Origin: Azolla caroliniana
Lineage: Eukaryota; Plantae; Polypodiophyta
Length of the DNA stretch: 64,000 nucleotides
Assembly: GCA_043228905.1 (NCBI GenBank)
Contig: JBHGNT010000010.1
Coordinates: forward strand, 6,696,001 to 6,760,000
Direction: 5' to 3'
The position numbers and the translations under genes are program-made. Below the pieces are notes generated by a model that saw only the letters and a list, made by a program, of their open reading frames with translations, was not told the DNA's origin and searched no databases. Positions 3,504 to 56,849 of this stretch are shown in pieces. The first letter of the stretch is position 1; every line of letters starts with the position of its first letter.

Positions 3504-3557
3504 TAGTCTAATGGTAAGAGCTCGACCCATGTAGCATAAGGTCATGGGTTCGAGTCT
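3504..3557 (+). promoter_or_regulatory. tRNA-like Pol III A/B-box cassette in G2 LTR (second copy 8725-8778)
   Basis: A box TAGTCTAATGG, 32 nt, B box GGTTCGAGTCT. Antisense to the element. Confidence 0.7.
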
Positions 3558-3583
3558 TGCAATATCATGACACTATCTCCCCC

Positions 3584-6500
3584 TTAAAGACGACGAGTGG
3601 AACGAGTCGGCGCTAATTGCGGACTGGGTTTGTTCGGATACTTTTGGTGGAAATCAGCAAGAAGATCTTGTGCATTGGCAACATGCTTGACGGGTTCCCA
3701 AGTACGTTCGCTCGGACTATAACCGAGCCAATCGACCAAGTAATAAAGTTTGTTGCGAACAAGTTTGGAATCGAGGATGGCAACAACTTCATACTCCAGG
3801 CCGGCATCCAACTCCAGCGGGGGCGGCGGTGGTGTCACACGATCGGGAATGGTGTTTGCTTTATAAGGCTCAAGAAGAGAACAATGGAAAACCGGATGTA
3901 TCTGAAGCTGCGGAGGGAGATCAAGGCGGAAGGTGACATCATTAATCTTCCCCGTAATACAAAAAGGACCGAGTCGTCGATAATCCAACTTGTCGCACGG
4001 TCGAGTAATCTTGATGTGACGACGTAAGAGCCATACTCAATCTCCGATGGCAAAAGAGGAGGGAATCCGATGACGATCCGCATAAGTCTTCTGTGTGTGT
4101 TGAGCATGACAAAGGTGAGTAGAGAGATCCATCTGGATCTTGTGTAGCCTCTCCAAATGATCCTCGGCACGAGGGTTGGTAGGTAGCTCCGGAGTGTCGA
4201 TCACCGGTATAAGCGAAAAATGGGGAGACCCGAGTCGAGGAGTGAATAGCATTATTATACGCAAACTCCGCAAAGTGGAGAATCTCGGCCCAATCGTCCT
4301 GTTGATAACTCAGGAAACACCGGAGATATTGCTCCAGCGTTTGGTTTGTTCGTTCTGCCTGTCCGTCGGTCTGAGGATGTTAGCCGGAGGAGAGGTTGCA
4401 GGAGACCTTGAGCATCTTGAAGAGATGCTGCCAAAATTTGGAGACAAATTGCGGGCCTCGGTCACTGATAATACTGTTTGGGAGGCCATGATGCCGAAAT
4501 ACCTCACGCATAACAAGAGCGGCGGTTTCCTCGCTAGTGATGGCTTTAGTACATGGCACAAAATGTGCCATCTTCGTATATCGATCGACGACGGTTAGGA
4601 TAGCATCAAACCCCTTCGAGACCGGCAGATCTGTGATAAAATCAAGACAAATAGACTGCCATGGCTTACTTGGAATCGGTAAAGGTTCCAACAAGCCATA
4701 TGGATGGTGTCGTGGCATCTTTGCTCGGCAGCAAGCATCACAGGTCCGAACGTAGTCGTCGACAAAACGACGCATGTGGGGCCACCAAAAAGATCGTTGC
4801 ACTAAATCCAATGTCTTAGTACTACCGAAATGTCCCGCCGTATGGGTGTCGTGACAATGTTGGACGATGTGAAGGCGACAGGAGCAATCGGGGACATATA
4901 CACGCTTTTTAAAGAATAACAAACCATCATGATATTCGAATTGTCGGTAGTCAATACCTGGTTGTTGAGACTGAGAACAGGATGCCCGAGAAGTATCAAT
5001 GTGCGCTAGGATGTCTTGAGCAAAACTATCCATCTTCAAAGTTGCACGTATGTCATCGGTAATCCGTGAATCCATCCGGGTGTGAAAAATCCGCGTCGTG
5101 TGCAATCGTGTTGGTCCCAAGATTACTTGCTTTTGATTATCAAATGTTGCGTCACCAGGACGAGGTGCAAGATATGAACGCCGTGATAGTGCATCTGCTT
5201 TTCCTTGCTGCTTCCCCGATCGATATGTGATTTTGAAGTCGAAACGCGTGAGGAATTGCGCCCACCGAGCTTGCCGTTGATTTAGTACGCGAGCGTTCTG
5301 AAAATAAGCAAGATTTTTATGATCGCTAAAGACAATGACCTGATGTGGAGAGCCCTCTAAGAAATGCCGCCATTGTACAAAAGAATCCACGATGGCTAAT
5401 AACTCCTTGTCATGTATTTCGTAGTTGATTTCTGCGACATGGAATTTGCGCGAATGGAAAGCCACCGGATGCAACTCTTCTTTATTGCCTTGTTGAGAAA
5501 GGATGCTACTGAGGGCGAAATCTGATGCGTCGGCCTCCATGATGAATGGTTTGCTTGTATCCACATGAGCTAGAATCGGTGCTGATGTAAAGGCTTTCTT
5601 AAGATGCCGAAAAACCATATCTGCTTCTATGGACCAAAGAAATGCTTGGCCCTTCTTCGTAAGTTGTGTGAGAGGTAAAATAATCTTTGAGTAATCCTGT
5701 ATAAACTTACGGTAGAAGTTAGCAAAACCTAGAAAACATTGTACATCTCGTACTGACCGTGGAATTTGCCACTCTAGTACAGTTTGGATTTTAGTTGGAT
5801 CCATGGCGATGCCCTTTGAGGAGATGACGTAGCCTAGAAATTCCACTTGCTTGCAGTCAAAGCTACATTTTTCTAGCTTGGCATAAAGACCATTCTCGCG
5901 GAGTCGCTTTAGTACTAATAGTACATGAGAATCGTGCTCTTCCTGGGTCTTCGAATAAATCAACAAATCATCCAGATAAATGATCAAACAGATATCCAAG
6001 AGGTCTCTGAATATATCATTTGCCATGTGTTGGAAGACTGCGGGTGCATTGGTTAGGCCAAACGGCATAATAGTATACTCGAAATGCCCATACCGCGTGC
6101 GAAAGGCGGTCTTCCACTCATTTCCCGGTCGGATCCGCACGAGATTATACGCTCCTCGTAGGTCGATTTTAGTAAAAAACTTGGCACCATTGACTCGCTC
6201 TAAAAGACTTGATATAAGAGGAAGTGCATACCTATTCCGGATGGTGACTTTATTCAATCCGCGGTAATCAACGACAAGACGAAGTGAGCCATCTTTCTTC
6301 TTGACAAAGAAGATGGGTGCACCGGCCGGAGATTTCGAATGGCGGATGAACCCGCTTGCCAAGTTCTCCTCTATGTAGGCTCGAAGGACTTCTAACTCGG
6401 TGGGTGACAAGTTGTAAATTGGTCCCCATGGTGGCTCGGTTCCTGGTTGTGAATCGATGGGACAGTCATAGGGACGGTGATGAGGAAGGGTACCGGCTTT

Positions 6501-7145
6501 TACCTTGTCAAATACATCGGCATAAGGATGATATTTTGCTGGAAGTTGTACTGAAGAGTCCTTCTTAATAGTGCTGGAAGGATGTACTGATACTGCAAAT
6601 AGGAACATTGCCTCCTTGGGTCCTTCTTTGCGTAGTTGATGGAGTGAAATGGTCGAAACTTGGTGAGTTGATTCTTGGGGTGGTCGATATCGGACTTCTC
6701 TTGTTCTCCAATCTATGGCTGGATTATGTAATTCAAACCAAGGTAATCCTAGGACAATGGGATGCTCTGGACTACTAATTATATTAAATGATATTACACA
6801 CACAAAACTACCTAGGACAACTTGAATGGGTTCTGATTCTTCTATAATATTCCCGGAAGCAATGGGACGACCATCAATGACTACTACAGATGCGGGACAA
6901 GGAAATTTTCTTAAGGATATCTGAAAAGCTTGGGCAAAATTTCGATCCATGAAACAGGAATTAGCTCCGGAATCTAAAAGTGCTAGGACGGGTACTGGGG
7001 GAGTACTTTTAGTACTAACAATGACTTGGGCTAGGAACACATTGCTAACTTGCTTGGAAGGAATGGAACCACTAATGGGCTGTACAGATCTAGGGCTGCT
7101 GTCCAACCAAACGGCTCCTATTTTGGCTGGACTCAATCGTTTAAC
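3584..7145 (-). CDS. G2 pol: protease-RT-RNaseH-integrase-chromodomain, lesions only in the distal integrase
   Basis: 918-aa ORF 4380-7136 with LLDSGA, YLDDLL and EADASDF. Terminal ORF has GPF and chromodomain ([24 protein letters not shown]) motifs. Confidence 0.92.
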
Positions 7146-8290
7146 TCTTCATCTAATTGACTAAGGATTTCAAATTTATTTGAGATACTTGGGCTATTAG
7201 TACTATGAATACTATCAAACACTCTATTAGTACTATTAATACTATCAGACACTCCTAAGGGAAGAATTGACTCGGGTTTAGTACAGGCTACAATTTGATT
7301 TACCTGTCTTCTTGGCCTATGGGGACAATTGATTGCGATATGCCCTGGTCCACCGCAATAAAGACATAATCGATTTGCACATCGTCGTTGCTTTTATTCT
7401 TCTGATAACGGGCCGCGTCGACGCATGGTATCGATCTCCATCGATGTCGAAGTATTTGCTTGAGGGATGTCTCGTGCAAATGGTCTAGCCGCGACTGCGG
7501 CGTAAGTGGGCTCCGGCCTAGCGCGTGGTATCTGTAATTGACGTTCCGAACGCCGTTCGAAGAGGCGGTTGTCACATCGGACCGCTCGACTGATTGCCTC
7601 CGTAAGAGACTTTGGTTCTTCGGGGAAGGTTAGAAGTAGATCTTTGACATCATTTCGCAGGCCATAGCGAAACTGCTCCATTAGTGGTTGATCATCCCAG
7701 GGTATGTCGGAAGCGAGTAGGCGGAAATCCGCCGCATAGGTAGAGGCTGGACGATCGCCTTGACGCAATCGCCGGATCTTGTTGATTGCCGTCCTGATGC
7801 TGTCGGTGTCTCCAAAGTAGGCTTTGAACTCACTAATAAAATCTTCAAAGTTATTAAGCAAGGGCGATTGTTTTTCTAGAAGCGGAGCGAACCATGCTAA
7901 GGTTGAGCCGCTAAGCAACGTGCCTATTAAGCCGACTCGGGATGCATCAGTGGGGTATCGGGAAGGATGCATTTGGAGGACTAATCGTACCTGATTAAGG
8001 AATCCCCTGAATTGCGATCGCGTTCCATCAAATTCCACAGGAAGTCCAATCTTCGGCTCTTTATGAAATCCTTGGGCACTTGATCCTTGTTGTTGCAATG
8101 CCGCTTCAAGTTGTTGCACCCGTAACGCTAACTCCCCATGTTGTTGCTGCGTTTGTTGCTTTTCTAGAGCGATTTGTTGGAGATCCCCTATCAGCCGTTG
8201 GTTTTCTTGTTCCAGGGCAACAAACTTTTCTTTTAGGCACTGTAACTCGGAGAACACGGATTGATATTCTTGGGCGCTAACAGTAGCCAT
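7133..8290 (-). pseudogene. G2 gag (coiled coil, capsid, CCHC knuckle), one premature TAA at 7394-7396
   Basis: MATVSAQEYQ..FDGTRSQFRGFLNQ..CLYCGGPGHIAINC. The frame reads through to TTA AAC GAT TGA at 7133. Confidence 0.88.
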
Positions 8291-9178
8291 AGTAGGGGGG
8301 AAAAGGATAGGAGGATGAGGGAGAACGACAAGTAGGCTGGAGGAAAGAGGAAGAAATTGGTTCAAACTGTCAGGAATAGTACTAAAGCAGAGATGGAATT
8401 AGTACTAAGAAGAGTAGTACTATTAGTACTAAGAGGACGGGACTGCGTAAGATTCCCGAGAGAGAGGAAGTGAGAAGAGGAGAGAGAGAGAAATAGGATG
8501 ATGACAACAGCTCTTATATTATATGAAAGATAAGTACAAATCGGCTAAGAGGCTTAAGACTGGTGTTGAACCAATTTGGTTCAAAACAATGCCTTGTGCC
8601 TCCTTTTATAGTGTTTTTAGGAATAATCCTGAAGCTTCTAGAATGTTCCAGAGAGATCTGGAATATACATCAATTTTCTATGATAAAGCATAAATGAAAA
8701 TAATATCCTACAAAATACAATTCATAGTCTAATGGTAAGAGCTCGACCCATGTAGCATAAGGTCATGGGTTCGAGTCTTACCATATCATGACAGTGAGCT
8801 GGGGAGTCGGTATGCCGCATCCTATCCGCAACCGGAAGTCTAGTATAGGTTAGACTACTAGCCAGTTATAGTCTCGTAGTTAGTGTCAGACGCTCATGTG
8901 AGCATTGAAGTACTCCGTACTTCTAACAGTCTCGTGTGGACTTGTATAAATAGCGGTGATGAGCGCGTTCTAGATACAAAGCACAGAGTATTAATATAAT
9001 CTTGAAAAATAGTGTGTTTTGCTCTCTCACTCTCTGTCTCTCCCGCGTACTCTCTCTCTCTGTATTGTTCTTTCTAACGCTTCCACAAGCAATCTTTTAC
9101 ATGGTATCAGAGCACATGGGTTGAGAACCTCTGCTGCAGACATCTACACTTGTGAAGAAAACAGACACAAAAGGAGAA

Positions 9179-10193: not shown

Positions 10194-10255
10194 TGTCATG
10201 ATAACACTCACATCATGCATGGAAAGGATCATGACACTCATATTATGACTCGAAA

Positions 10256-10310
10256 GGATTTGAACCCACGACCTTGTTGTACACACGTCAAATCCTTAAC
10301 CATTGTATTA
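10256..10310 (-). promoter_or_regulatory. tRNA-like A/B-box cassette in G3 LTR (second copy 15507-15561)
   Basis: TAATACAATGG, 33 nt, GGTTCAAATCC. Antisense to the element. Confidence 0.65.
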
Positions 10311-10750
10311 ATATTCTTATATGTATAGTCTCTAGAATATGAAATCTAATATCATAGGAATATTCTATATTACTCTACATTCTAGAATGACCTAGAATAT
10401 TCTAGAGTGTTCTATACCACTAGAACCTTCTAGAATACTCTAGAGATCTTCTAGATTACTCTACATTCTAGGATAACCTAGAATATTCTAGAATGTTCTC
10501 TATTACTTATAAATAGGGATCTACCACCCATCCCAAACCTAAATTGGTTCAACGCCATTTTGTAGCCTACTCTTTGTAATCCATTTTACGCTTCAATATA
10601 ATAATTCTCTTTCAATTATCTCTCTATCTCTTTTTCTCTCTTTCTCTCTCTCAGTCTTGACAGTTTGAACCAATTTTTTTCCTTTCATCTCTTCGTCTTC
10701 CACAAATCCTAACAAGTTCTCTGCTTCCTTCTCCTCTCCTCTCGTAAGCT

Positions 10751-11785
10751 ATGGAGTCCGTGAGCAAACAAGAATACATGCGTGTTCTTTCTAAGCTCGA
10801 CATGCTCACGAATAAATTTGTGGCATTAGAGCATGAGAATCAAAGGCTACTTGGAGATCTACAACACGTGAGCGCCGAAAAAGCTCAACAATATGAAGAG
10901 TTATCACAGCGGGTTCATCAACTCGAGGCGACTATATTGTCATTACGTGAGCAAGCGTCGAGGGCTCATAACTCCCCTAGAGAGCCAAAGATCAGCCTCC
11001 TTGCCAAGTTTGATGGTACGAGGTCTTTATTTCGAGGCTTTTTGAATCAAGTTCGTCTAGTTATTAAGCTATATCCCAATCAATATCCAACTGATGCTGC
11101 TCGTGTGGGATTAGTGGGAACTTTGCTATGCAGTACGGCGTTAGCATGGTTCGCACCACTTCTCGAGAAGAAATCACCATTACTGGAGGATTTCGAGGCA
11201 TTTGTTAAAGAGTTTCAAGCTAGTTTCGGAGACACTGACAACACTAGGACAGCGATAAACAAGATTCGAAGGCTCCGACAAGGAGATCGTCCCGCGTCGT
11301 CTTATGCAGCCGATTTCCGTCTCTTGGCATGCGATATCCCTTGGGATGAGGCAGCTTTAATGGATCAATTCCGCCAAGGTTTGAGAAATGATGTCAAAGA
11401 TCTTCTTCTTACTTTCCCTGAAGATCTGCAGTCACTTATAGAAGCCATTAGTCGAGCTGTGCGATGTGATAATCGCCTATTTGAGCGACGTTTTGAGCAC
11501 CAACAAATGTTACGCCGCCAACCTGAGCAGACTTACGCTGCCGTAGTCGCAACACCTCCACAAGTTTCTAGACCCATTACAAAGGATGGCCCAACTCCGA
11601 TGGAAATAGAGTCAACACAACATCGTGGGCCGTTATCAGATGCTGAGAAGCAACGACGTCGAGCGCATCGCCTTTGCCTGTATTGTGGCGGTCCAGGACA
11701 TATAGCTGTAAATTGTCCACATAAACCTAGGCGTCAAGTATACCAAGTAAGTGCCCATGCCATGAGAATAGATTCGATGTCTTGA
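10751..11785 (+). CDS. G3 gag
   Basis: 344-aa ORF with retrotransposon gag features and a CLYCGGPGHIAVNC knuckle. Confidence 0.9.
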   Translation: MESVSKQEYMRVLSKLDMLTNKFVALEHENQRLLGDLQHVSAEKAQQYEELSQRVHQLEATILSLREQASRAHNSPREPKISLLAKFDGTRSLFRGFLNQVRLVIKLYPNQYPTDAARVGLVGTLLCSTALAWFAPLLEKKSPLLEDFEAFVKEFQASFGDTDNTRTAINKIRRLRQGDRPASSYAADFRLLACDIPWDEAALMDQFRQGLRNDVKDLLLTFPEDLQSLIEAISRAVRCDNRLFERRFEHQQMLRRQPEQTYAAVVATPPQVSRPITKDGPTPMEIESTQHRGPLSDAEKQRRRAHRLCLYCGGPGHIAVNCPHKPRRQVYQVSAHAMRIDSMS

Positions 11786-11801
11786 GTCAATTAGAGGATG
11801 T

Positions 11802-14800
11802 GTTAAACGAGTAAGTCCAGCCAAAATAGGAGCCATTTGGCTGGACCATCCTAGCTATGTAGAGTTAGTTCCTAGTTGTGGTTCCATTTCATCAAATCAA
11901 GTGAGTCGAGTTTTTTCAGCACAAGTCGAGCTTACCACATCTACATGTCATCGAGTCCTAGCCTCTGCCCTTCTAGATTCTGGAGCCAACTCTTGTTTCA
12001 TGGATCGTGAATTTGCCTTGTCACAAAACATCCTCTTGAATAAGCTTCCTAGCCCAGTAGCCGTAGGAGTCATTGATGGACGTCCCATAGCATCAGGAGA
12101 TATAGTCGAGGAGTCCGAGCCAATTAGGATAGTTCTTGGCAATTTGGCAAGCATAATCTCTTTCAACATTATTCGTAGTCCGGAACACCCAATAGTTCTA
12201 GGTCTCCCCTGGTTTGAACTCCATAACCCGAAGATTGATTGGATGAAAAGAACAATTGCGGAGACCCGGGAAAAAAGCACAAACCCTGCATCCCTCTCTC
12301 CTACATGTGATAATAGATCCCGGGAGTTATCGCCCATCTCTTTACGACAGTTGCGGGAGGAAGGGGGGAACGAGGCCATGTTTGTCTTCGCAATAATAGA
12401 AACTCCATCATCCACTTCATGTGAGGCGGATATTAAACTACCAGAGAAATACAAGGAGTTTTCAAATGTCTTTGATAAGGTGAAGGCCAATACATTTCCG
12501 GAGCATCGGCCATACGACTGCCCTATTGACTTACAACCAGGGAAAGAACCTCCATGGGGCCCAATTTATAATCTCTCCCCTATAGAGCTAGAAACTTTGC
12601 GGGAATATATTGATGAGAATCTGGCAAATGGATTCATTCGGCATTCTAGATCCCCTGCTGGTGCACCTATCTTCTTCGTTAAGAAGAAGAATGGGACTCT
12701 TCGGTTGGTTGTGGATTATCGAGGGCTAAACAAAGTGACTATCCGGAGTAGATATGCTCTACCATTAATCCCGAATATTTTGGAACGTCTCAGTGGAGCA
12801 AAATATTTCACGAAGTTGGACCTTCGCAGAGCATATAATCTAGTTCAGATTCGCCCGGGGGATGAATGGAAGACAACTTTCCGCACCCGCTATGGACACT
12901 TTTAGTATACAGTGATGCCATTCGGTCTCATGAATGCACCTGCTGTTTTCCAACATATGGCGAACGATATTTTTCGAGATTTTCTTGATATCTTCACTAT
13001 AGTTTACCTAGATGATATTTTAATCTACTCAAAGACCCAAGAGGAGCATGATGAACATGTTCATCAGGTACTGCGTCGACTCCGAGAATATGGTCTCTAC
13101 GCAAAATTAGAAAAGTGTAGTTTCGGCCAGAATCAAGTGGAATTTTTGGGGTATGTTGTATCGTCAAATGGTATTGCTATGGACCCCATGACGGTACAAG
13201 CAATTTTAGAGTGGCAAACGCCCCTTTTAGTGCGTGATGTGCAATGTTTTCTCGGGTTTGCAAATTTTTATCGAAAATTTATTAAAGATTATTCCAAGGT
13301 TGTGCTTCCGCTTACTCAGCTCACACATAAAGATCGACCATTTATATGGAGTTCAGATGCAGCCCAGGCATTCGAAAGCTTAAAATGAGCATTTACAACT
13401 GCACCTATCTTAGCACATGTCGACCCAACAAAACGCTTCATCCTCGAAGCCGATGCATCCGATTTTGCATTAGGGAGTGTCCTCTCGCAAACTGGAGATG
13501 ATGGACAACTACACCCTATCGCCTTTCATTCACAAAAGTTTGAAGCTGTAGAGATCAACTACGAGATCCATGACAAAGAGCTTCTTGTAATCGTGGATTC
13601 GTTTCAACAATGGCGACATTTCCTAGAAGGTTCTTCTCAGCAAATCATTGTCTACAATGATCATAAGAACTTGACTTATTTCCAAAATGCTCGAGTCTTG
13701 AGTCGGCGACAATCCCGGTGGGCGCAATTTTTGACTCACTTTGATTTTATCATCATATATCGCCATGGGATGCAGCAAGGCAAAGCAGATGCTCTTTCTT
13801 GGCGCTCTTATATGGAACTTCGTCTAGGGGAACCTGCATTTGAGCATCAAAAACAAATCCTTTTGGGTCCTAATTGATTACGATTAATGGTAGTTAACGC
13901 CATAACAACTCTTGAAAATTCCACTCTTCTTGATTCCATTCGAGATCATATGGCCACTGATGATTTCGCCAAGGATGTTTTGGATCATATCGTCCCGGAT
14001 CGTGCTTCTTGCTCACGGTCGAAAAATCCTCGTAATGACTATTGTCAGTTCTATTGGCATGGTGGTTTTCTATTTCGACAATATTTATTGTATGTTCCTG
14101 ATGGTCCCCCACGGCTACAAGTTTTGCAACATTGCCATGACTCACCAATGGCTGGTCATTTTGGAGTTCACAAGACTCTAGAATTAATTTCTCAACGCTA
14201 TTGGTGGCCTCGCCTTCGTCATTTTGTTGAGGAGTATGTTCGGAGTTGTGATATATGTTGTCAATCAAAGAATCCTCGTCACCGACCCTATGGCTTACTA
14301 CAACCACTTCCCATTCCGGAAACTCCTTGGAAGTGTATATCCTTGGACTTCATTACTGATCTCCCAGTTTCAAAAGGTTTTGATGCAATTCTCATAGTGG
14401 TTGATTGATTTACCAAAATGGCACATTTCATGCCATGTACAAAGTCGATTACTAGTCAAGAGGCGGCTGATCTCGTTATGCGGGAGGTATTTAAGCATCA
14501 TGGTTTGCCGGATGATATTATTAGTGATCGTGGTCCACAATTCATCTCAAAGTTTTGGAAGCACTTGTTCAAACTTCTCCACATTTCAGTTAAGCTTTCT
14601 TCGGGCTATCATCCTGAAACAAATGGCCAAACAGAGCATACCAACCAGACATTGGAACAATATCTTCGTTGTTTCATCAACTATCAACAAGATGCTTGGG
14701 TTGCTTTTTTGCACTTGGCGGAATTTGCTTACAACAACTCAACCCATTCTTCTACAGGATATTCCCCATTTTTCGCAAATACGGGCTGTCATCCTCGGTG

Positions 14801-15452
14801 GACAATGAATGCGCATCCAAAAGTTCCTACCAACCCTGCTGCCAAGGATCTTCTTAGTCGTCTCCAAGAAATTCAAGCTAACATTCTCCACAATTTGCAC
14901 AATGCTCAATTTACACACAAGAGGCTTGCCGATCGTCATCATCTAGACTCCTCAAAAAAGTTCCGCATTGGGGATCATGTATGGCTTCTCCAACACAACA
15001 TCAAGACCACTCGACCTTGCAGTAAATTGGATTACCAACGTTTTGGCCCTTACATGATCACTGGTAATATAAGTGATGTTGCATTTCATCTTGCCCTCCC
15101 TCCGCACATTCATCTTCATCCGGTGTTTCATGTATCCCTTTTGGAACCTTATACTACAAGTTCAATTTTGGGCCGACTTACGACACCCCCACCACCTGTC
15201 GAGTTCTTGGATGAGCTTGAATTTGAAGTTGCTGCCGTTCTCGATTCTAAAATCGTGCGCAACAAGTTGTATTACTTAGTCGATTGGCTAGGTTATACCC
15301 CCAATGATCGAACTTGGGAACCTGCCGCAAATCTTTCCAATGCTGCAGAACTCGTCAATGCATTTCATCGCCAATATCCTTGTAAACCAGGTCCTAATAC
15401 AAACCCTACGACCCGTGAGACGTGTCGTCGAAGAAGGGGGATAGTGTCATGA
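11802..15452 (+). pseudogene. G3 pol (PR-RT-RH-INT-chromodomain) with several in-frame stops
   Basis: LLDSGA, YLDDIL, integrase core and chromodomain YYLVDWLGY. Stops at about 12903, 13386, 13875 and 14406. Confidence 0.92.
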
Positions 15453-15913
15453 TGACACTCACATCATGCATCGAAAGGATCATGCAACTCACATTATGAC
15501 TCGAAAGGATTTGAACCCACGACCTTGTTGTACACATGTCAAATCCTTAACCATTGTATTAATATTCTTATATGTATAGTCTCTAGAATATGAAATCTAA
15601 TATCATAGGAATATTCTATATTACTCTACATTCTAGAATGACCTAGAATATTCTAGAGTGTTCTATACCACTAGAACCTTCTAGAATACTCTAGAGATCT
15701 TCTAGATTACTCTACATTCTAGGATAACCTAGAATATTCTAGAATGTTCTCTATTACTTATAAATAGGGATCTACCACCCATCCCAAACCTAAATTGGTT
15801 CAACGCCATTTTGTAGCCTACTCTTTGTAATCCATTTTACGCTTCAATATAATAATTCTCTTTCAATTATCTCTCTATCCCTTTTTCTCTCTTTCTCTCT
15901 CTCAGTCTTGACA

Positions 15914-23071: not shown

Positions 23072-23108
<37 letters not shown>

Positions 23109-23160: not shown

Positions 23161-23536
23161 ATTCTCCATTTCTGCAACAAGGGTGAGATATTCTTCTAAG
23201 TTGATGGCGGCCATGGTTTCGTGATGTTTATAGAGGAGGATAAAGGAGAGAGAGATAAATTCGGATCAAACTATCAGAACCAAGAGAAAAGATAGAGTGA
23301 CAGAAGAAAGGTATAAAGCGATCACAAGAAGAGAGGAATGAAATAATAAGAGAAGAATGAATGTATTAGATAGAATGAGAATGGATACAAGATAGGTGAT
23401 GAAAGCTTAAGACTGCTATTGATTTGAATTGGTTTGAGAAGAATTGTATGTCCATATTTATAGGTTCCTATAGAATAGCCTAGAGATTTCTATAATGTTC
23501 TAGGATGTTCTAGACCTAGAATATTGTAAGATGTTC
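23161..23536 (-). mobile_element. G1 continued: gag N-terminus (ATG at 23214), PBS-like site 23257-23271 and truncated 5' LTR (23272-~23536)
   Basis: MAAINLEEYLTLVAEMEN joins in frame to LKSKFASLELENQRLLGDLQ below 1928 once the TSD ATTCT is collapsed. Confidence 0.85.
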
Positions 23537-23689
23537 TGTTAAGAAACAGGTCCCTCCGGATGGGAAGTGAGAAGAACAGTGTTGATGAGCAAACTTGGCC
23601 AAGGCCGATAGGCCGAGGTGTTGCCTTCCTCCTCCCATTCCGTCGTGGTGAGTTCTTCGAGATGTTGCTTCTGCTGACGTGGAACTGTG

Positions 23690-34000: not shown

Positions 34001-34309
34001 ATAGGCACGACAAATACAACTCTCATCATATATAAGGTGGAGCAAAAGATATTATCTTTGTGTCTATGTGTGGAGCATAGAGAGTTCAAGGTAACTTGAA
34101 CTAAGAGTGGAGGTGGGCTAGCTACTCATAAAGGGTTTTGGCCAACCAAAACCGGACCAGCGATGGAGCCGGTGATCCGGCGGGCGGCAATCCGGCGACG
34201 GTGATCCGACGGCATCCGATGGCGGCACCGGCATCCGGCGACGCACCGGTAACCGACGGCATTCGGCGACTAGATAAATAAATATATAAATATATATACA
34301 TATAAGTAA

Positions 34310-34363
34310 GGATTCGAACCTTGCACCTCCAAGTTAGGAGTCAATTGGCTTACCATTAAGCCA
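34310..34363 (-). promoter_or_regulatory. tRNA-like A/B-box cassette in P1 LTR (second copy 41320-41373)
   Basis: TGGCTTAATGG, 32 nt, GGTTCGAATCC. D-arm-like (TGGCTT/AAGCCA) and T-arm-like (AAGG/CCTT) stems. Confidence 0.75.
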
Positions 34364-34897
34364 TGCTATTTAGTTGAAATTATATTTCTATCATTGTACT
34401 TTTACATGTAAATTCTCATACATGAGAACTAAAATGAGTGACATGGTTATCATGCACCACATGTAATACATAAGCGCCAAATGGCAAACATGCAATTTAT
34501 GCATGTCTTGTACCCTCACATGCATCATATGCATGAGAGCTTCTATAAAAGAGGGAAGGGGGAGGAGAAAAAACACAGTTTTTTTTATGAAAATTAAGAG
34601 GAAGAAATTCGTTATCAAATTGATCGTGTAACTTGTTTCTTAAATCTAAAGTTAAAAGTTCAATCAATCTCTCTCAATCGTGTAATCTCAACTTCTCTCT
34701 TTCCCAATCTATCTTAAGTACTTTCTCGCTAAAGCTTGCGCCAAAGCTTTTACCGACTTTGAATCCTTCCGGTCCAGAACCCCGGCGGTTCCGCCTCACG
34801 ATCCGCGCGTAGTGACGGATCTTCACGACATAATTAAGTGGTGAACCCGACGTGAAAGAGGCGGTAGGAAGGATTAAGTCGAGATTAATACTTGGAG

Positions 34898-37096: not shown

Positions 37097-40000
37097 AGCG
37101 GACTATTGAAGCATGGGGCACAAATAGTCCGAGCAATCACAAGACCCCACAAGAAGGAAGAGTGCGTGGATTGCAAGGAGAAGCAACATGTGTCACACCT
37201 AGTGGCGCATGTAAACTAGTACTACCCGATAGGAAGCACAAGCGCCGGATACAAGAATTCGAGAAGATGCTGAAAGAAGAGAACATAATAGAAGAAGGAG
37301 AGTTCGTGACTCATATTATGGAAGAAGCCTCATTTAACGACACCATCGGCGAAATCGAGGACGTCGTGGACTTGAGCTATCTTCACAACCAACGCGTGAT
37401 TTCGGTTAACTCCGTCAACATGTACGCTATCATCGATGAATACCGTCATGGCATCTCGATGAAGGAAGCTGATATCAACACGAAATATAAAACGGTGGAT
37501 AAGAAGATCAAGCCAGTTGCGGTTCCGCTACCGGAAGATAGCTGGCAAAAGATGAAGGAAGTCGCTAACGATCCAAGCTTAAGAGATCCGAAGAAGATAG
37601 ATCATGACTTCACCAAAGAGACGAAGGGGAAGCTACGAGTTGGAAAGGAGGATTTCCTTCTCCTTGAAGAGGAGTGAATGTTTCGCGATATGCTTGAGAG
37701 ACATGGGAAGGTTTTCGCATTCTTCGCACGAGAAATCGGATGCGCCAACCCAAAGGTTATAGAGCCGATGGTGATCTTCACGGTGCCTCATGTGCCTTGG
37801 AATTTGAAACCGATACCGGTTCCGAGAGCACACCTTCCGAAGCTGATCGAGCTCTTAAAGGAGAAGGTGAGTATGGGAATTCTAGAACCGTCGAATGCTC
37901 CTTATTCCAATAGGTGGTTCACGGTGCCGAAGAAGAATGGATCATTGCGATTCATCCAAGATCTTCAACCCGTCAACAAGGTGACAATTCGAAATGCCGG
38001 AATCGGTCCGAGCGTGGACGAATTTGCCGAAGCGTTTGCGGGCCGGTCCATCTACTCCATTGGCGATCTCTACTCCGGATATGACCAATTCCAATTGGCG
38101 ATCGACAGTCGGGACATTACAACCATGAGGACTCCGATCGGGCTTCTGCGGATGTGTACCTTACCCCAAGGCGCAACGAACTCGGTGGCTCATATGGTGA
38201 ATGCCATGAATAAAGTCTTGAAGGATTGCATTCTGGACATCACGATGCCATTCTTGGATGATATTCCGATAAAAGGATGTTCGGATGAGGAGAAAGATGA
38301 ATCGAAAGATAAGGAAGGTTGTAGAAAGTTCGTTGCGGATCATATGAAAGATTGCGAGAAGGTGCTTCAAAGGCTCGAAGATGCGAATTTGACATTTTCG
38401 GGAGAAAAATCCGCATTCGGGCAACCGGAGATCTTGGTGGTAGGTCACTTGTGTGGAGCATACGGCCGGAAGCCCTCGCCATCCAAAGTGAACACAATCC
38501 AAGACATGAAAGAAGAATGCGAAAACCAAACGGAGGTTCGAAGGTTCCTTGGAGCGTGCGCATTTTATCATATATGGATTCCTCACTACGCTCATGTCGC
38601 TGAACCGTTATATGGATTACTAAAGAAAAGAATAAAGTTCGAATGGCGAGACGAGCACACAGAGGCGATGCGAAGATTAAAGAAACTGCTTCTTGAAGCT
38701 CCGGCACTAAGGAAGGCCGACTATGCCGAAGGGAAACCAATTTACGTGACCGTAGATACGAGCCCAACCGGAATCGGGTGGGTCATCAATCAAGAAGGTG
38801 AAGATAATGCGCCATATGCCGTCCGGTTCGGAGCAAAGGTTCTCAGCGAACGGCAACAAAGATATGCCCAAGTCAAGAGGGAACTTTGGGGTATTGTGTC
38901 GGCAGTGAAGACGGACAAAGATTACTTGATCGGGTCAAAAGTGATAATAGAGACAGATTGTCTCCCAATTCTCGGAATGGTCTCGGGATGTGCGACCCCA
39001 GATCTTGCTATGCTAAGGTGGATCGCCTACATCAAGTCTTTAAACCCAGAGATCCGTCACATCGCAGGGAAGAAGAACGCCATGGCTGACATGCTGTCGA
39101 GGGCAAGATTTTCAAATGGAAGTAACATGGTTTCGGAAGATGAAGATGTCACCCTCGACTTCTTCAAGATGGCTCGATTTCGGCGGAAGACCAGGACACG
39201 CAAACCCTCCACGCCTTCAACGAGAACGAGTACGAAGGAGAATGGTTACTCATCGGTAGATTCCTAAGAACATTGACGACAGATGCTTCGTTGACAAAGG
39301 AGGAGGCCCTACGAATCCGAAAGAAAGCTTACCGATACTTCTTGAAGGGAGGATTCCTTTGGCGACATCCAAAAAGAAGGACAGGAATACCACGTCGAGT
39401 GGTGGTAAAGAAAGAAGAGCAAGAGACGTTGATGACCGAATTCCACGAGAGTGCTTGGGCAGGTCATAGAGGAACATGGGCGACGTTCGAAAAATTGAAG
39501 GAGAAGTACTGGTGACCAAGCATGTACAAAGATGTACTCCATTTCGTGTCCACATGTGAAACTTGCCAAATATATTCAAATATACGTCATCATAATGAGT
39601 TAAAGCCGACATACCCACTCACCATTCACTTCAAATGGATGGTGGATCTGGTCTCGATGCCAATGGGAGTGGGACAAATGAAGTACTTAGCGCTGGCAAG
39701 GGAAGACTTGACAAATCAAGTGGAAGGACGAGCCTTGACAAATAAGACGACTTCAGCCGTTTGTAAATTTTTACTTGAAGATGTTGTTTGCCGATATGGA
39801 TGTGTAGGGAAGATAGTGGCCGACCGAGGGGAGTTGGACGCGCACGAAGCGACGGAGCTCTTCGAAAGACTAGGCGTGAAGCTCTCCCTCACGATTGCCT
39901 ACAATCCGGAAGCAAATGGGAAGATCGAGCGAGGGCATGGACCTATCGTTAAAGCCATCGTACGGGCATGCAACGGTCGAGTCGGGAATTGGCCACGACT

Positions 40001-40523
40001 ATTACCCTATGCCTTGTGGGCCGATAGAACGACACATAGCTCGGTGAAAGGGTATATGCCGACGGAGCTTATGTATGGACAAAAGCAGATTATGCCCATC
40101 GAAAGGACGATCGCCTCATGGGTAGCGATACCGTGGGAGAACGAGATGAACCGAGAAGAGTTATTAGCGGCGCGAATAAGGCAAATTGAAAGAAGACCTG
40201 AAGATTTAGAAAAAGCGCGAAAGATGATGAAGGCAGCCCAAGTAAAGAACAAAGTTCGGTTCGACAACACGCATCGACTTCGTCCCAAGAAGATTGAAGA
40301 AGGGGATTGGGTTTTGGTTTACGACAGCACCCTTGACAATCAACACAGTACAACAAGGAAGTTCGCAAGAAAATGGTTCGGGCCGTATGTGGTGACAAGT
40401 GCCAACGATAATGCCACATACCACCTTGCGGAACTAGATGGATCAAGGTTGGTCGTACCCATTGCGGGAAAAAGAGTAAAGATTTTCAAGAAAAGACAAT
40501 ACAAGGATCCTGACCTCGATTAA
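37087..40523 (+). pseudogene. P1 pol (RT-RNaseH-integrase, no chromodomain)
   Basis: LPQGATNS, FLDDI, VDTS, H-H-C-C zinc domain, YNPEANGKIER and GPY motifs. Two stops and one frameshift. Confidence 0.9.
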
Positions 40524-43500
40524 CTCGACAATGAACATAATAGGCCGGATGAAAATGAAGACATGGAGGAATCTAATTGATCATCGTAGCCGAAATCTCC
40601 CTTCTTCTCTTCTTGGCACGTACCGGAGGACGTGCGGTTTGGTGGGGGTGGATGTCGTGAAGATTTTCGGCAATAGTGTGAAAATCCCATAAAACATACG
40701 AAATCGAGTATGAATCACATAGTACAATAATTGTGAAGATAACATTTTAAATAGATTTAATATCTAAGTACAAAATGATGGAGGTTTCGAATGCACTTTA
40801 TTACACGAGAAACAGACAACTAAATGTCAAGATATGAGGGTACAAAGTTTGTAAAAGGAAAGGAGAAAATTGTGAGATATCCCACATAGGCACGACAAAT
40901 ATAGCTCTCATCATATATAAGGTGGAGCAAAAGATATTATCTTTGTGTCTATGTGTGGAGCATAGAGAGTTTAAGGTAACTTGAACTAAGAGTGGAGGTG
41001 GGCTAGCTACTCGTAAAAGGTTTTGGCCAACCAAAACCGGACCGGCGATGGAGCCGGTGATCCGGCGGCATCCGACGGCAATCCGGCGATGGAACCGGTG
41101 ATACAACCGCAATCCGGCGATGGAACCGGTGATCCTACCGCAATCCGGCGATGGAGCCGGTGATCCGACGGCATCCGGCGGCGGCATCCGACGAGGCACC
41201 AGTAACCGACGGCATCCGGCGACGGCAACGGTAACCGACAGCATCCTGCGACAGTATCCGGTGAATCGGCGTCCGGCGACTAGATAAATAAATATATAAA
41301 TATATATACATATAAGTAAGGATTCGAACCTTGCACCTCCAAGTTAGGAGTCAATTGGCTTACCATTAAGCCATGCTATTTAGTTGAAATTATATTTCTA
41401 TCATTGTACTTTTACATGTAAATTCTCATACATGAGAACTAAAATGAGTGACATGGTTATCATGCACCACATGTAATACATAAGCGCCAAATGGCAAACA
41501 TGCAATTTATGCATGTCTTGTACCCTCACATGCATCATATGCATGAGAGCTTCTATAAAAGAGGGAAGGGGGAGGAGAAAAAACACAGTTTTTTTTATGA
41601 AAATTAAGAGGAAGAAATTCGTTATCAAATTGATCGTGTAACTTGTTTCTTAAATCTAAAGTTAAAAGTTCAATCAATCTCTCTCAATCGTGTAATCTCA
41701 ACTTCTCTCTTTCCCAATCTATCTTAAGTACTTTCTCGCTAAAGCTTGCGCCAAAGCTTTTACCGACTTTGAATCCTTCCGGTCCAGAACCCCGGCGGTT
41801 CCGCCTCACGATCCGCGCGTAGTGACGGATCTTCACGACAACGCGCGAAGAGAAAGGGAAGAAGAAGGTATCGGATTCCGGCACAGATAGGAATGAGTCA
41901 GACCGACACGAGTCCGACTTCGAGGAAAGCGGTGACGGGCCTTCAGGAATGAAGTCTGCGTCGGCTGAGAAGACCTCGACATCGGCTAATGACTGATTAC
42001 ACCGATCTACCCGCCAAAAGAACTTGATTGTTTGGTTCGGATACAACGAGTACATGGCGCATCACTATGCATACATGACCCGTGTAGCGGAAGTGCGTGA
42101 GCCAGAGAGCTACGCAGAAGCGGCGAAGGACATGAATTGGCGCGCCGCGATGGAGGAAGAGATGCACGCATTGGCGGAAAATGAGACCTGGGACCTGGTT
42201 GACGCACCAAAGGGTGTGAAGCCGATCAGATATAGGTGGTTGTACAAGGTCAAGTACAACATCGACGGCTCGGTCAACCGATACAAGGCCCAGTTAGTGG
42301 CAAAAGGCTACGTGCAAAAACACGGCATCGACTACGATGAGACGTTCGCGCCGGTTGCAAAGATGACGACCGTCCGTGTTTTGCTCGCAGTAGCTGCGGC
42401 CAAGGGGTGGCACCTACATCAGATGGATGTAAAGAATGCATTCTTGCAAGGTGAGCTTGAGGACCAAGTGTACATGGTACAGCCCCCCGGATTTCACTCC
42501 GAACCGAACATGTCGGCAGTATGCCGATTGAAGAAGTCCCTTTATGGACTGAAGCAAGCCCCGCGTGCCTGGAATGCGAAAATCACGCATCGGCTGTATC
42601 AGATGGGCTTTGCGACGTCAAAATCAGACTCCTCGTTGTTCATTCGGAAAGGTCGACTCGGGCCGGTCAGTATTTTACTCTATGTTGATGACTTGGTCAT
42701 CACGGCGCCGACCTAGGTGAGATCAACCGCGTGAAGCTCCAGCTTGCGGCATCATTCGACATGAAGGATCTGGGGGACCTTCATTACTTCCTCGGGATCG
42801 AAGTGATCCGTACCCCCGAAGGCATACTCATCAGCCCACGTCATTACGTGCTGAATATGCTCTCCAAATTCGGGATGGCAGAGTGTAAGTCCATCTCAAC
42901 TCCTCTGGATAGAACTGTCAAGCTTCGCCCTAATTCCGGCAAGGTTTGCGATCCAACATGGTTCGGACAAGTTGTTGGAAGCCTGATCTACTTGACAATC
43001 ACCCAACCCGATCTCAGTTATCCGGTCGGGGTGATCAATCAGTTCATGGCACGACCTACCGAGGAGCATCTTCAGTGTGCACAACGCGTACTGCGGTACG
43101 TAAGCGGCACTAAGGACCGCGGACTGCTATATCGGACCAATACAGCCCCGCAGTTGGTCGGCTACACCGATGCCGACTGGGCCGGCAATGTCACCGATCG
43201 CCGATCCACGTCCGGGTATGCGTTCTCTCTTGGGAGTGCCGCGATAGCGTGGAGTAGCAAGAAGCAGCCGACAGTTGCACTGTTGAGCACCGAAGCCGAG
43301 TATAGAGGGGCAGTTGTCGCAACATGCGAAGCCATATGGTTGAAGCGGCTACGCATGTTGCCATATGGTTGAAGCGGCTACTTAAGAATCTGCAGGTGGA
43401 GGTGTCTAATCCAACGACGATGTACTGCGAAAACCTCCGCAGCATCCAACTCACGAAGAACCCCGTCTTCCACGCACGGACCAAGCACGTTGAGGTGCAC

Positions 43501-48871: not shown

Positions 48872-48996
48872 GGGAATGGAAACACTATTATAACTAATTA
48901 GCTGCTAAAATGGCCATAGCTATTTAGCTATTTGTTTAGCTAATTTTTCGTAGGCAAATCATAAGGATCATTTACGAACATTTTTTGCTTTATTAC

Positions 48997-53652: not shown

Positions 53653-54380
53653 TGTCGTGCCTTTCGGCGCCAGATCGTTGCGTGAGTCGGGTGGGAACCG
53701 CTGGGGTTTTGGACTAGGAAGAGGAGAGTTTTAAGGCTAATAAGAATATAAATATGTTGTAAGAAAGAGTTATAGCAAACTCGTGAATCCCACGAGTGTA
53801 TTGTATTAGATTAATCAATATGAATATAAGAATATAAACTTCGGTTGAAAGAGAATGATATAGAATTCTCGTGAATCCCACGAGTATAGTTTATTAATTG
53901 GTGTTTTTTAGAAACATATCCAGTTTCCAAATATTTTTCACACACAATTACATTGTGCTCCCCATCCTTATGTAGTGATGAGGAAGTCTTAGTAATCCAT
54001 GCTTTTTCTCTAACTATAGACCCCATGCTTTTCCTATAGATAGACTATATGCTTTATCTAAAGTGATCATGCTTTTTTCTAACTTGTGCGTTTTTTATCA
54101 TGCACGCTAGATGTGTATGTGTAGCTTTTTCTTTTGTTATGCGTTTTTCTAATGTTTATCCTAACGTGAATTTACCTTTCTATATGGGACATCTATGCTT
54201 TAACACTAATGAAATGCTAGTGTAATGGTAAGACATTACATTATTAACATGGAGGTGCAAGGTTCGAATCTTGCCCTATGCATGTTCCATTTATTTTGCT
54301 ATTTTCTTCTATTTCTTCATTTTTTATTGAATCTAATACTATATACGTTTTTCACGTAGTGTACAAAATACACTACGACA
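53653..54380 (-). mobile_element. Solo LTR related to P1 LTRs
   Basis: Ends TGTCGT..ACGACA with 4-bp TSD ACGT (53649-53652, 54381-54384). Its U5-like GTCCAAAACCCCAGCGGTTCC matches P1 GTCCAGAACCCCGGCGGTTCC. Confidence 0.85.
54218..54271 (+). promoter_or_regulatory. tRNA-like A/B-box cassette in the P1-related solo LTR
   Basis: TAGTGTAATGG, 32 nt, GGTTCGAATCT, followed by T4 runs. Confidence 0.7.
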
Positions 54381-56499
54381 ACGTTGATCATATTGTGTTT
54401 TGTATTTGATAGGGTGTATAAGGCAAATGATAGTTGTACACAATATGAGGGCTTGATCAAACCGATTAGATGGAGTTGTGAATTATAATAGTTTTTATAG
54501 ATCAAGGTAACTACAAATTAGAGAGGGAGACTCAAGAAATTAAGAAAAAAGGTAGAGAAGATGAGAAAGAGATAAGAATGTTATAATATTCCACTATCAA
54601 GTCAATACAAAGGGGATAAAGTCCAAATTGAACTAAAAAACCAAAGAACTTCTTACTTCCAATCACTCAAACCTACAAATGTCTTTCACTATTCTACCTT
54701 AATCTCTTTCTTCCTTCAACTATGCTTCCTTCTTCCCACTCCTAAGACTCTTCCTCTTATTACAAAGGTATCATTTCCCCCTTCCTTAGCCTCCTTCATC
54801 TCCATTGTTATCATCTTCTTTCCCCCCGCTTCCTCTCTTTTTCACGCTCTTTATTGAAGTTTTCATCTCCTATTTTTAGCTTCGACATAGTGATCTTCGC
54901 ATCGTCATATCTCCCTCATCGGAGCTCCACATTTAGAGATTTAAAAAGTTACTAATAGCCCTCTTTATGAGCTTTCTAACACATATTTATACAAGATATT
55001 TGGGTGATAAACGAAAGAGTTATGACCACTCCTTGTAGACTGTTTTTGGGTGGTCTACTTTTTCTCTTTTTACTTTTCTCTGTGTCTCTTACTTTTACTT
55101 TTGATTTCTTCTTAAGGTCTTGATTCGTGTTCTTAGCTTCCAAATGTGAATGCTCCATAACTTATATTCTTCTAATGTTCAATGGTTTGAAATCTAAAAA
55201 TACTTTCACAATATTATTTCCCGGTCTTAATGGAATCATAGTCTTCTACCAATTCTGTCATGCACATGTGGATATCCTCGACACTAATTTTCCAAAGTCA
55301 TGGTAACTTACTAAAAATGCTTTTGCATAGCTCTCATTCTCTTCCGGGCTCCCATAAAGTCTATGTTCGATTGTTCATTGTTCCTAGCCACAACACCTAA
55401 AACCTAAGTTTTATATTAGCCTAATGTTATGGTCAAACAAGTAATTTAAAGGGGTCTAGAAGAGATAACAACATAGAAATATGAAATTCAAAGTATCTGA
55501 TGAAAATGAAAAGTGATATGTTTTTTGTGATATTACTTCAGTTTTATGGTTTAGATTGTCTAAAGCCGTGGTTTTATGTTTTAGATTTGGTTCATTTTCT
55601 GTCATCCATTTCAAAATAGTCTAACTTAAATGTTGGTTTTCTTTCTTAAAAATTAATTGTTTTAAAAGAACAATTAATTGCTCCATCAATGCTTGATCAT
55701 CCCAGGGGATATCGGAGGCGAGTAGACAGAAACATGCAACGTAAGCGGAGGCTAGACGATCACCTTGACGTAATCGTGGGATTTTGTTGATTGCCGTCCT
55801 TATGCTATCAATATCTCCAAAACAGGCATTAAACTCGCTTATAAACTCCTCAAAATTATTTAGTAATGGAGATCTTTTCTCTTACAACGGAACGAGCCAT
55901 GTCAAAGCTGAGCCGCTCGGCAACGTGCCTACTAGACCCACTCATGATGCATCAGTGGGATATCGGGAAGGATGCATTTGAATGACTAATCGTACCTGAT
56001 TAAGGAATCCTCTAAACTGTGATCGCATTCCATCGAATTTCATAGGAAGGCCGATCTTGAGCTCTTTATGAATCCCTTGAGTACTTGGTCCTTGTTGTTG
56101 CAATGCTACAATGGTTTCTTCAAGTTGTTGCACGCGTAACGCTAGCTCCCCATGTTGTTGTTGCAAATCCACATGTTTTTGTTGCCTTTGCTGCTTTTCT
56201 AAAGAGAATTGTTGAAGATCCCCCAACAACCATTGATTTTCTTGTTCCAATGCGACAAACCTTTCTTTCAAGCATTGCAGCTCCGAGAAAACGGATTGAT
56301 ATTCTTGAGTGCTAACCGTTGCCATAGTATTGGAGGAAAGAGGGATTAGAGGATTAGTACGAAGGGAGGGAGGAGTAAGAATATAGAGAAATTCAGTTCA
56401 AACTGTCAGGAATAGTACTAAAGACAAAGAGGGAATTAGTACTAGAGGTAGAGGAGGATGAGTACGATGAGTAGTTAAGAGGAAAAGATGGTGTGGAAT

Positions 56500-56505
<6 letters not shown>

Positions 56506-56547
<42 letters not shown>

Positions 56548-56554
56548 GAGAGAG
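56506..56554. repeat. (GA)n microsatellite in G4 LTR
   Basis: Directly visible. Confidence 0.95.
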
Positions 56555-56783
56555 ATGATGGCAATAGAAGATATATATTATAAGGAGAAAGATACAAGAA
56601 CAACTAGGAAACTTAAGACTGGTGTTGAACCGAATTGGTTCTCAATAATGCCATGTGCCTCTTTTTATAGTGTGCTTAGGAATATTCTTGACGTTTCTAC
56701 AATGTTCCAGAGAAATCTAGAATATACATGGATTTTCAAAGTGAAATAATAAATGAAAACAATATTTTTTATATTATAATGTA

Positions 56784-56837
56784 CAGCGTAATGGTAGGGC
56801 CTCAACTCGTATGACACAAGGTCATGGGTTCAAATCC
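56784..56837 (+). promoter_or_regulatory. tRNA-like A/B-box cassette in G4 LTR
   Basis: CAGCGTAATGG, 32 nt, GGTTCAAATCC. Confidence 0.65.
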
Positions 56838-56849
56838 TTTTTGAGAGAG

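Follow-up and report, generated by a model that had tools for sequence, protein, structure and literature searches.

An antisense A/B-box cassette in Tcn1- and Phygy-type gypsy retrotransposons as a predicted TFIIIC-type DNA site

The window, its cassettes and the elements that carry them

The stretch of Azolla caroliniana DNA analysed here (64,000 nucleotides of contig JBHGNT010000010.1, positions 6,696,001 to 6,760,000 of the forward strand; hereafter the window) is a nest of copia retrotransposons with gypsy elements inserted in it and a plant S-adenosylmethionine synthetase gene at its far end. An earlier note on this sequence had pointed to eight copies of a tRNA-type RNA polymerase III (Pol III) promoter cassette, composed of an A box and a B box, within the gypsy elements' long terminal repeats (LTRs). 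We found both boxes at all eight positions, together with a ninth copy inside a pol gene, and we predict the cassette to be a selected DNA site for the Pol III factor TFIIIC. The nine copies are as follows.

299..351, plus strand: internal cassette in pol of element G1; A box 299-309, B box 341-351, gap 31 nt; antisense to pol and in frame, in the linker between protease and reverse transcriptase (RT); a T6 run 11 nt past the B box
3504..3557, plus strand: cassette in the 3' LTR of G2; A box 3504-3514, B box 3547-3557
8725..8778, plus strand: cassette in the 5' LTR of G2; A box 8725-8735, B box 8768-8778; 15 nt from the LTR edge; TATA at 8610; long hairpin (z -6.9)
10256..10310, minus strand: cassette in the 5' LTR of G3; A box 10300-10310, B box 10256-10266; TATA at 10508
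15507..15561, minus strand: cassette in the 3' LTR of G3
34310..34363, minus strand: cassette in mid-U3 of the 5' LTR of P1; A box 34353-34363, B box 34310-34320; TATA at 34544
41320..41373, minus strand: cassette in the 3' LTR of P1
54218..54271, plus strand: cassette in the solo LTR
56784..56837, plus strand: cassette in the LTR of G4; a T run follows immediately; TATA at 56669

The B box of the earlier note has 8 sites in the window where 1.33 would be expected, a count that none of 100 shuffles attained. A scan for an A box, 28-40 nt and a B box gave 9 sites with at most one mismatch in 22 letters and none in 12 local shuffles, the motifs being the tRNA promoter consensus, with the final B-box letter loosened after inspection of the data. 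All nine cassettes are antisense to their element. As had been claimed, the boxes lie 32-33 nt apart in every LTR copy (31 nt in the internal one), and the cassette stands upstream of the Pol II TATA in G2, G3, G4 and P1; we looked for a TATA in the solo LTR and found none. The absence of the cassette from copia LTRs likewise held, in 10 of 10 pieces of the window, whose best scores were 5-7 mismatches. Since the paired LTRs of one element are not independent, the window contains six independent cassettes. A tRNA-model search of the cassettes, which the earlier note had suggested, came back empty: ARAGORN called 0 tRNAs, and Rfam gave no tRNA match.

The elements in question belong to two gypsy lineages (TSD, target-site duplication; PBS, primer-binding site).

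1..1923, minus strand: G1, Tcn1-type gag-protease-RT fragment, its own LTR outside the window
3148..8793, minus strand: G2, Tcn1-type chromovirus; LTRs 8368-8793 and 3148-3572, 421 of 425 positions identical; 5-bp TSD GTGAG; chromodomain; broken pol
8355..8365, minus strand: self-priming PBS of G2, 11/11 complementary to LTR positions 8566-8576
10194..15913, plus strand: G3, Tcn1-type chromovirus; LTRs 10194-10662 and 15445-15913, 462 of 469 positions identical; 5-bp TSD GTACG; chromodomain; self-priming PBS, 11/11
23272..23537 (approximately), minus strand: G5, 5'-truncated Tcn1-type LTR with PBS and gag start; the portion that would hold the cassette is gone
33768..41840, plus strand: P1, Phygy-type gypsy element of 8073 bp; LTRs 33768-34830 and 40653-41840; 4-bp TSD ACGC; tRNA-type PBS 34839-34856; without chromodomain
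53653..54380, minus strand: solo LTR of a second Phygy-type family; 4-bp TSD ACGT; ends like those of P1, with only the cassette and the U5 end common to the P1 LTR
55615..56850, minus strand: G4, truncated Tcn1-type LTR (56404 to about 56850) with PBS and gag start

G2, G3 and P1 sit inside copia sequence, in a deep nest of related copia elements that spans 1929-50600, and the G4 LTR is cut off just outside its own cassette. Complementarity at the self-priming PBS is 10-11 of 11 in G2 to G4. P1 has a TGG-type PBS, possibly that of tRNA-Trp, and its named relatives come from Riccia and Ceratopteris (51-67%). For G3, P1 and the solo LTR alike, the TSD includes a CG. Assigned by REXdb feature rows, G1 to G4 match Tcn1, and P1 and the solo LTR match Phygy: G2 and G3 have the chromodomain, 5-bp TSD, self-priming PBS and size (5.5-9.4 kb) of chromovirus Tcn1, and P1 and the solo LTR have the 4-bp NCGN TSD of non-chromovirus Phygy, P1 also lacking a chromodomain and falling within the 7.7-10 kb size range (TSD, PBS type, size and chromodomain status of both lineages from REXdb, PMC6317226, and from PMC2864245). 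In REXdb, Tcn1 is known from mosses and club-mosses only, and Phygy from Physcomitrella (PMC6317226).

A layout like that of G2 and G3 occurs in the Selaginella element SM-Tcn1, where the 12 nt that follow just past the LTR could pair with a complementary site located downstream of the TATA (PMC2864245, supplement S3; the paper itself reports that self-priming was not in evidence), and the R region of SM-Tcn1 resembles that of G2. We rejected a B-box look-alike that lies on the sense strand where Tcn1 transcription starts: it is the self-priming site, and it differs in G5 and SM-Tcn1.

Distribution and conservation of the cassette

Tcn1 loci were gathered from metagenome contigs by a search whose query was the aligned chromodomain end of Tcn1, and the best 80 of 180 confirmed stretches yielded 77 loci; because recruitment was by protein only, this set is blind to the cassette. 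Seventeen loci stand outside the count, 12 without a callable LTR start and 5 too short; among these, L036, L037, L038, L074 and L077 carry a cassette at no more than 2 mismatches, L016 carries a damaged one, and none was seen in L015, L065, L073, L075 and L079. The cassette was present, antisense and within the first 150 nt of the LTR, in 47 of the 60 counted LTRs at no more than 2 mismatches in 22 and in 50 at no more than 3, and control scans at the former threshold gave 0/60 in sense, 0/60 upstream, 0/54 downstream and 0/1200 in shuffles. Counted by cluster, it occurs in 21 of 31 (80% identity) or 15 of 22 (70%). The gap between the boxes is 31-33 nt in all 47 positive LTRs; the distance to the LTR edge is variable (10-62 nt, in U3 and beside the polypurine tract, PPT), and the Pol II TATA follows at 103-251 nt (TATA in 31 of 41 rows). 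The earlier note's claim of a tRNA-derived A/B module in two distant gypsy lineages is borne out, most family members have the module, and the cassettes are not recent insertions of short interspersed elements (SINEs), which it had named among the outcomes that would overturn that claim: the location within the LTR is the same in 47 of 60 LTRs and in every major subclade.

In a quick-version tree of 56 of the 81 rows, the cassette bearers form one branch (SH-aLRT 99, 50 rows), outside which lie two rows from viral contigs and four loci of greater distance; the four distant Tcn1 relatives have no cassette. This one branch, together with the absence of the cassette from SM-Tcn1 and from the LTR start of the P. 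patens element RLG1 (see below), indicates that the module marks a single Tcn1 clade and not Tcn1 as a whole. Spacer and protein distances showed no significant correlation (Mantel rho 0.11, p 0.09, n = 32), so the case for vertical descent comes solely from the common position and the clustering in the tree. The contigs that cover these LTRs come from sequencing runs labelled with four organisms. Scans of viral contigs returned no close relatives, one giving three loci at 35% without the cassette, and a scan of viral contigs for the cassette pattern gave 3 loci, one of which overlaps a tRNA-like ARAGORN call. At L023, two ARAGORN tRNA genes (Asn and Thr; 552-627 and 831-906) lie just upstream of a Tcn1 integrase fragment.

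For the analysis of conservation, 62 LTRs were reduced to 51 by dereplication at 95%, of which 45 have a B box within one mismatch and 43 were aligned by tRNA geometry, a filter on the boxes that inflates the figures that follow. When rows are anchored on the B box only, the A box reappears in 45 of them at a constant offset. Conservation in the 43 rows is 88-100% for the invariant promoter residues (T8 in 38, A14 in 43, T16 in 42, G18 in 42, G19 in 41, G46 in 42, T47 in 43, G53 in 43, T54 in 42, T55 in 43, C56 in 42, A58 in 43 and C61 in 40), the free positions 10-13, 59 and 62 vary, and position 57 holds either G or A. Pairwise identity averages 0.94 over the key sites and 0.43 over the anticodon arm, and among elements whose proteins differ by more than 30% the spacer goes down to 43% identity with the gap still at 31-33 nt. 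Across 17 disjoint close pairs, we counted substitutions at 3 of 187 key sites, 65 of 486 spacer positions and 268 of 1878 U3 positions, and indel events numbered 1 in the spacer and 30 in U3.

The tRNA fold itself is not kept. Watson-Crick pairing is at shuffle level in all four stems (acceptor 0.25, D 0.40, anticodon 0.27 and T 0.38 in the 43 rows), the anticodon stem with G-U pairs included gives 0.39 versus 0.34 in shuffles, and the 43 rows have 17 different anticodon triplets. G-to-A changes, which RNA wobble pairing would allow, are nearly absent at G18, G19, G46 and G53. An AGGT block at tRNA positions 44-47, 5' of the B box, is 88-100% kept in Tcn1 and present in both Phygy cassettes, which suggests a putative extended B-box footprint. 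The upstream side is 83% AT, in a U3 that is itself AT-rich, and a CAA motif occurs without fixed position; both features are weak in non-flowering plants (PMC13578239). By eye, none of the 43 rows has a TSD or 3' tail of its own around the cassette, features that old insertions would have shed. This pattern of conservation would fit a DNA motif read by protein better than a structured tRNA or a defined transcript. Because the boxes are kept while the tRNA stems are unpaired and no terminator is conserved (see below), we infer that the cassette is a selected promoter element acting as DNA, and neither a tRNA nor a scattered SINE; the probability that it is a selected element of TFIIIC type, with TFIIIC predicted to bind it, we put at roughly 85%.

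On the Phygy side, the evidence comes from the two families in the window and from contigs on the P1 cassette, as the metagenome scan covered Tcn1 only; a scan of prokaryote genomes for Phygy gave no matches. The cassettes of P1 and the solo LTR are 74% identical over 82 nt, and beyond them only the U5 end can be aligned. Anchored identity is 10/11 in the B box, 8/8 at positions 44-51, 16/24 in the spacer and 8/11 in the A box, and that of the flanks is 13-40% (27/100, 30/100, 20/50 and 11/88). Among contigs on the P1 cassette, nine spacer positions vary, and the A box has two variants, each the exchange of one purine for another at a degenerate position and so in keeping with the consensus. 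Phygy and Tcn1 spacers are 26-36% identical, which is background likeness, and separate capture of the cassette by the two lineages is plausible; the two acquisitions envisaged by the earlier note fit this figure, although the fit falls short of proof. Immediately outside the cassette, P1 U3 has a GC-rich tandem repeat (34150-34270 and 41040-41280) that is about 125 nt longer in the 3' LTR.

The internal copy lies in a protease-RT linker that is 22 codons longer in G1 than in G2, and it is in frame there. Seven of 24 retrieved protease-RT linkers carry a cassette, all in frame, and these seven and G1 make five variants with 78-91% nucleotide identity, from one subclade whose LTRs carry the cassette too. 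The key sites of the internal B box are invariant in 6 of 6 cases versus 16 of 42 other sites (p 0.006), and the neighbouring amino acids change. Third-codon positions point the same way, with 4 of 4 invariant in the internal cassette versus 38 of 80 in the background, a comparison that is suggestive only.

Putative function and competing explanations

TFIIIC binds A and B boxes and puts TFIIIB onto AT-rich upstream DNA (PMC13578239); tRNA genes are nucleosome-poor, and organising and insulator roles have been proposed for TFIIIC and extra TFIIIC (ETC) sites (PMC11346459). By this established Pol III biology, host TFIIIC on the antisense boxes would load TFIIIB upstream of the A box, which in the antisense layout is the inner side, so that TFIIIB would come to lie between the cassette and the Pol II TATA, 103-251 nt from the TATA, in a divergent arrangement with the B box towards flanking DNA. 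Such a nucleosome-poor, barrier-like site would help copies to stay transcribable in repeat-dense chromatin, and the in-frame copy in pol would be a second putative TFIIIC site. To the more specific proposal, that the cassette is a self-carried opener or barrier that keeps the element's Pol II promoter accessible, we give slightly less than an even chance.

Several observations weigh against a selected TFIIIC site or against its proposed role. TFIIIC binding is impaired by methylation. Besides the box filter noted above, forcing seven decayed copies into the pair test brings the substitutions to 14/224 at key sites, 90/608 in the spacer and 336/2405 in U3, with p 0.04-0.21 once gaps are counted. 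The earlier note's expectation that the boxes be more conserved than spacer and U3 is supported, though this unfiltered form of the test is weak. Ten of the 60 LTRs have 4-8 mismatches (deletions, breakpoints, decayed copies and one two-contig group); the Tcn1 LTRs of that group, L028 (4445-4595) and L040 (395-545), contain two tandem B-like boxes and no A box. The sample is narrow, with 73 of 77 loci from 16 assemblies of one series. Contigs on P1 show no B-box variants, a result confounded by the stretch edge and with 8 rows hidden. For the copy in pol, the internal A-box key sites are invariant in 2 of 5 cases only, protein constraint may contribute, and a promoter shield accounts poorly for a cassette at this position. 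No cassette was seen by eye in SM-Tcn1 (PMC2864245, supplement S3) or found in the P. patens RLG1 assembly over its first 400 nt (apparently LTR start to TATA), so Tcn1 elements are able to do without it. RLG1, moreover, is an active chromodomain element of the heterochromatic islands of P. patens (PMC7466625), and it thrives in heterochromatin though its first 400 nt lack the cassette.

Some of these points would also suit a neutral relic, that is, an old SINE or tRNA pseudogene that entered ancestral LTRs, and once pol, and whose apparent conservation comes from descent and motif-biased scoring. Decayed or deleted copies (10/60), outgroups without the cassette and the weakness of the unfiltered pair test after gaps are counted are in keeping with it, and Kojima proposes that the Helenus elements arose from a SINE insertion (PMC10886601). 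However, the loci were found by protein and not by motif; key residues stand at about 94% where the spacer is at 43%, with the gap held at 31-33 nt in elements whose proteins are more than 30% apart; and the cassette is nearly the sole alignable part of the Phygy LTRs. We regard a purely neutral origin of the pattern as very unlikely, while a SINE origin and later selection are mutually compatible.

The main rival, which the earlier note had also raised, is that the cassette functions as a Pol III unit and that selection acts on its antisense RNA, either as a hairpin precursor of small RNAs or as a transcript from the 3' LTR into integrase, or from the internal copy into protease and gag, that would tune the element's own silencing. 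The antisense orientation at all three placements agrees with this, as do T runs shortly downstream of the G1 and G4 copies and the requirement of foamy-virus LTR miRNA genes for A and B boxes (PMC3993851). G2-type cassettes form long hairpins (z -2 to -7, lowest -6.9), and pairing of positions 22-30 with 55-63 reaches 91% in the 9 rows of the G3 clade and 61% in the 11 rows of the G2 side, versus at most 33% in registers slid by more than one. Yet z falls below -2 in just 12 of 43 rows, no consensus fold emerges, pairing is 38% in the remaining 23 rows, and 28:57 shows no significant covariation (p 0.34). A T4 run lies between the B box and the LTR edge in 12 of 41 only, without a conserved terminator, and the end of a transcript would thus hinge on the insertion site. 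The hairpin keeps an RNA product alive for some families, a discrete transcript is weakened by the missing terminator, and selection on antisense RNA is, in our estimate, unlikely. In the fold-back at 8725-8790 and 10256-10300, the B-box core pairs with spacer positions 22-30, and 28:57 has C-G and T-A alternatives within the G3 clade.

The sequence might instead act in the genomic RNA, where it would be complementary to the D and T loops of a host tRNA and aid packaging, dimerisation or strand transfer. This would account for the antisense orientation of every copy, and the Tcn1 cassette has a suitable place in U3, 10-62 nt from the LTR edge beside the PPT; HIV-1 U3 is reportedly a similar tRNA-complementary case. 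The closest likeness is the bipartite PBS of Ty3, the U3 half of which pairs with the T and D arms of the primer tRNA (PMC5371799). Ty3, however, matches its own primer, whereas G2 to G4 self-prime (10-11/11) and only 4 of 18 positions of the P1 cassette agree with the 3' end of that element's primer, as read from the PBS. In addition, sites that are fixed in any one tRNA (10-13, 59, 62 and the anticodon) vary, and changes tolerated by wobble are rare at the key G residues. Pairing with a tRNA is accordingly quite unlikely to be what maintains the cassette.

Least probable is an integration landmark, in which LTR-bound TFIIIB would draw integrases or tether elements at Pol III sites; Ty3 is said to be drawn to tRNA genes in this way. 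Immediately upstream of the A box, all nine cassettes of the window are free of insertions; by eye, the upstream 40 nt of the 43 rows are ordinary AT-rich U3; and G2, G3 and P1 inserted in copia sequence. This suggestion of the earlier note found no support, and we consider it highly improbable.

Returning to the TFIIIC-type DNA site, its broadest version would have three captures of a tRNA promoter (at the Tcn1 LTR edge, in mid-U3 of Phygy and in frame in Tcn1 pol), all backward, all pared to the bare TFIIIC site and all serving as a self-carried chromatin barrier or opener against silencing in autonomous gypsy elements of non-seed plants. As a whole this version is doubtful. If true, it would describe an anti-silencing strategy of plant transposons that runs on Pol III factors and would give evidence for TFIIIC barriers working in plants, for which we found no test of activity in the literature; it would thereby address the open question of how autonomous retrotransposons are transcribable amid silenced, repeat-dense chromatin. 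As a module of 54 nt whose critical bases are known, and which one Tcn1 clade has and the RLG1 LTR start has not, the cassette lends itself to a direct gain- and loss-of-function test. Capture of Pol III promoters would be widened from the non-autonomous TRIMs (terminal-repeat retrotransposons in miniature) to protein-coding elements, in an orientation unable to drive their own RNA. If the families are as abundant as contig coverage hints, depth not being equal to copy number, they would have added many TFIIIC sites to the genome.

Known systems and remaining features of the window

Pol III boxes in LTRs are known already from Cassandra, Helenus and foamy viruses; boxes that are antisense and occupy three positions in clades of autonomous gypsy elements appear to be new, in that we found no report of them. 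The miRNA cluster of bovine leukaemia virus (BLV) is reportedly a further case of an autonomous retroelement with A/B-box Pol III units. The nearest published relatives are the Helenus TRIMs (TRIMp3), which likewise have tRNA-derived LTR sequence with A and B boxes kept and mostly no functional tRNA (Kojima 2024, PMC10886601). Helenus elements are non-autonomous and 311-1263 bp long, whereas the elements here measure 5.6-8.1 kb and have gag-pol and a TATA; the Helenus LTRs examined, including Helenus-1_SMo, have sense boxes, and those here are antisense (0/60 sense); and one copy here is inside pol. The Helenus boxes are thought to drive Helenus's own RNA (PMC10886601), while the boxes here, being antisense, are unable to make genomic RNA. 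Cassandra and Ajax TRIMs also have a captured, conserved Pol III promoter in the LTR, but it is of 5S type (type 1), in non-autonomous elements, and gives sense transcription with a terminator (PMC10886601). Foamy viruses share with our elements autonomy and an A/B-box unit in U3, and differ in having defined hairpins, terminators and proven small RNAs (PMC3993851), where here the hairpin is clade-limited, the terminator is not conserved and any RNA product is putative.

At the level of chromatin, tRNA genes and ETC sites resemble the proposed site in that A/B or B boxes act on chromatin as DNA (PMC11346459), and B2 SINE boundaries in that the boundary is carried by a mobile element (PMC8136502). 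These are host loci or SINEs of yeast and animals, however, with B2 boundaries tied to CTCF, and our literature search turned up no description of such sites in the LTRs of autonomous gypsy elements of plants.

The earlier note knew of no description of such cassettes. That stands for antisense cassettes in autonomous gypsy elements and not for tRNA-like LTR sequence as such, which is published for non-autonomous Helenus (PMC10886601). Conserved A/B cassettes that are antisense and free of tRNA structure, whether across clades of autonomous gypsy elements or in pol, did not turn up in a literature search that left most subscription papers and Repbase entries uncovered; the REXdb main text (PMC6317226) has 0 matches for 'polymerase III' and 'tRNA-like', and the available text of PMC2864245 has 0 for 'polymerase III'. 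According to Kojima, 'not a few' Repbase LTRs contain part of a tRNA, and only TRIMs were analysed (PMC10886601), so unpublished annotation of tRNA-like parts in other LTRs may exist.

The remaining features of the window lie outside the cassette-bearing elements.

30672-31093, 44575-44615 and near 48880: palindromic tandem repeats adjoining copia LTRs, with weak miRNA-family scores far under threshold
50976-51627: another LTR-like solo piece, without cassette
58088-58780: RT fragment, probably of a LINE
60677-61624: S-adenosylmethionine synthetase exon

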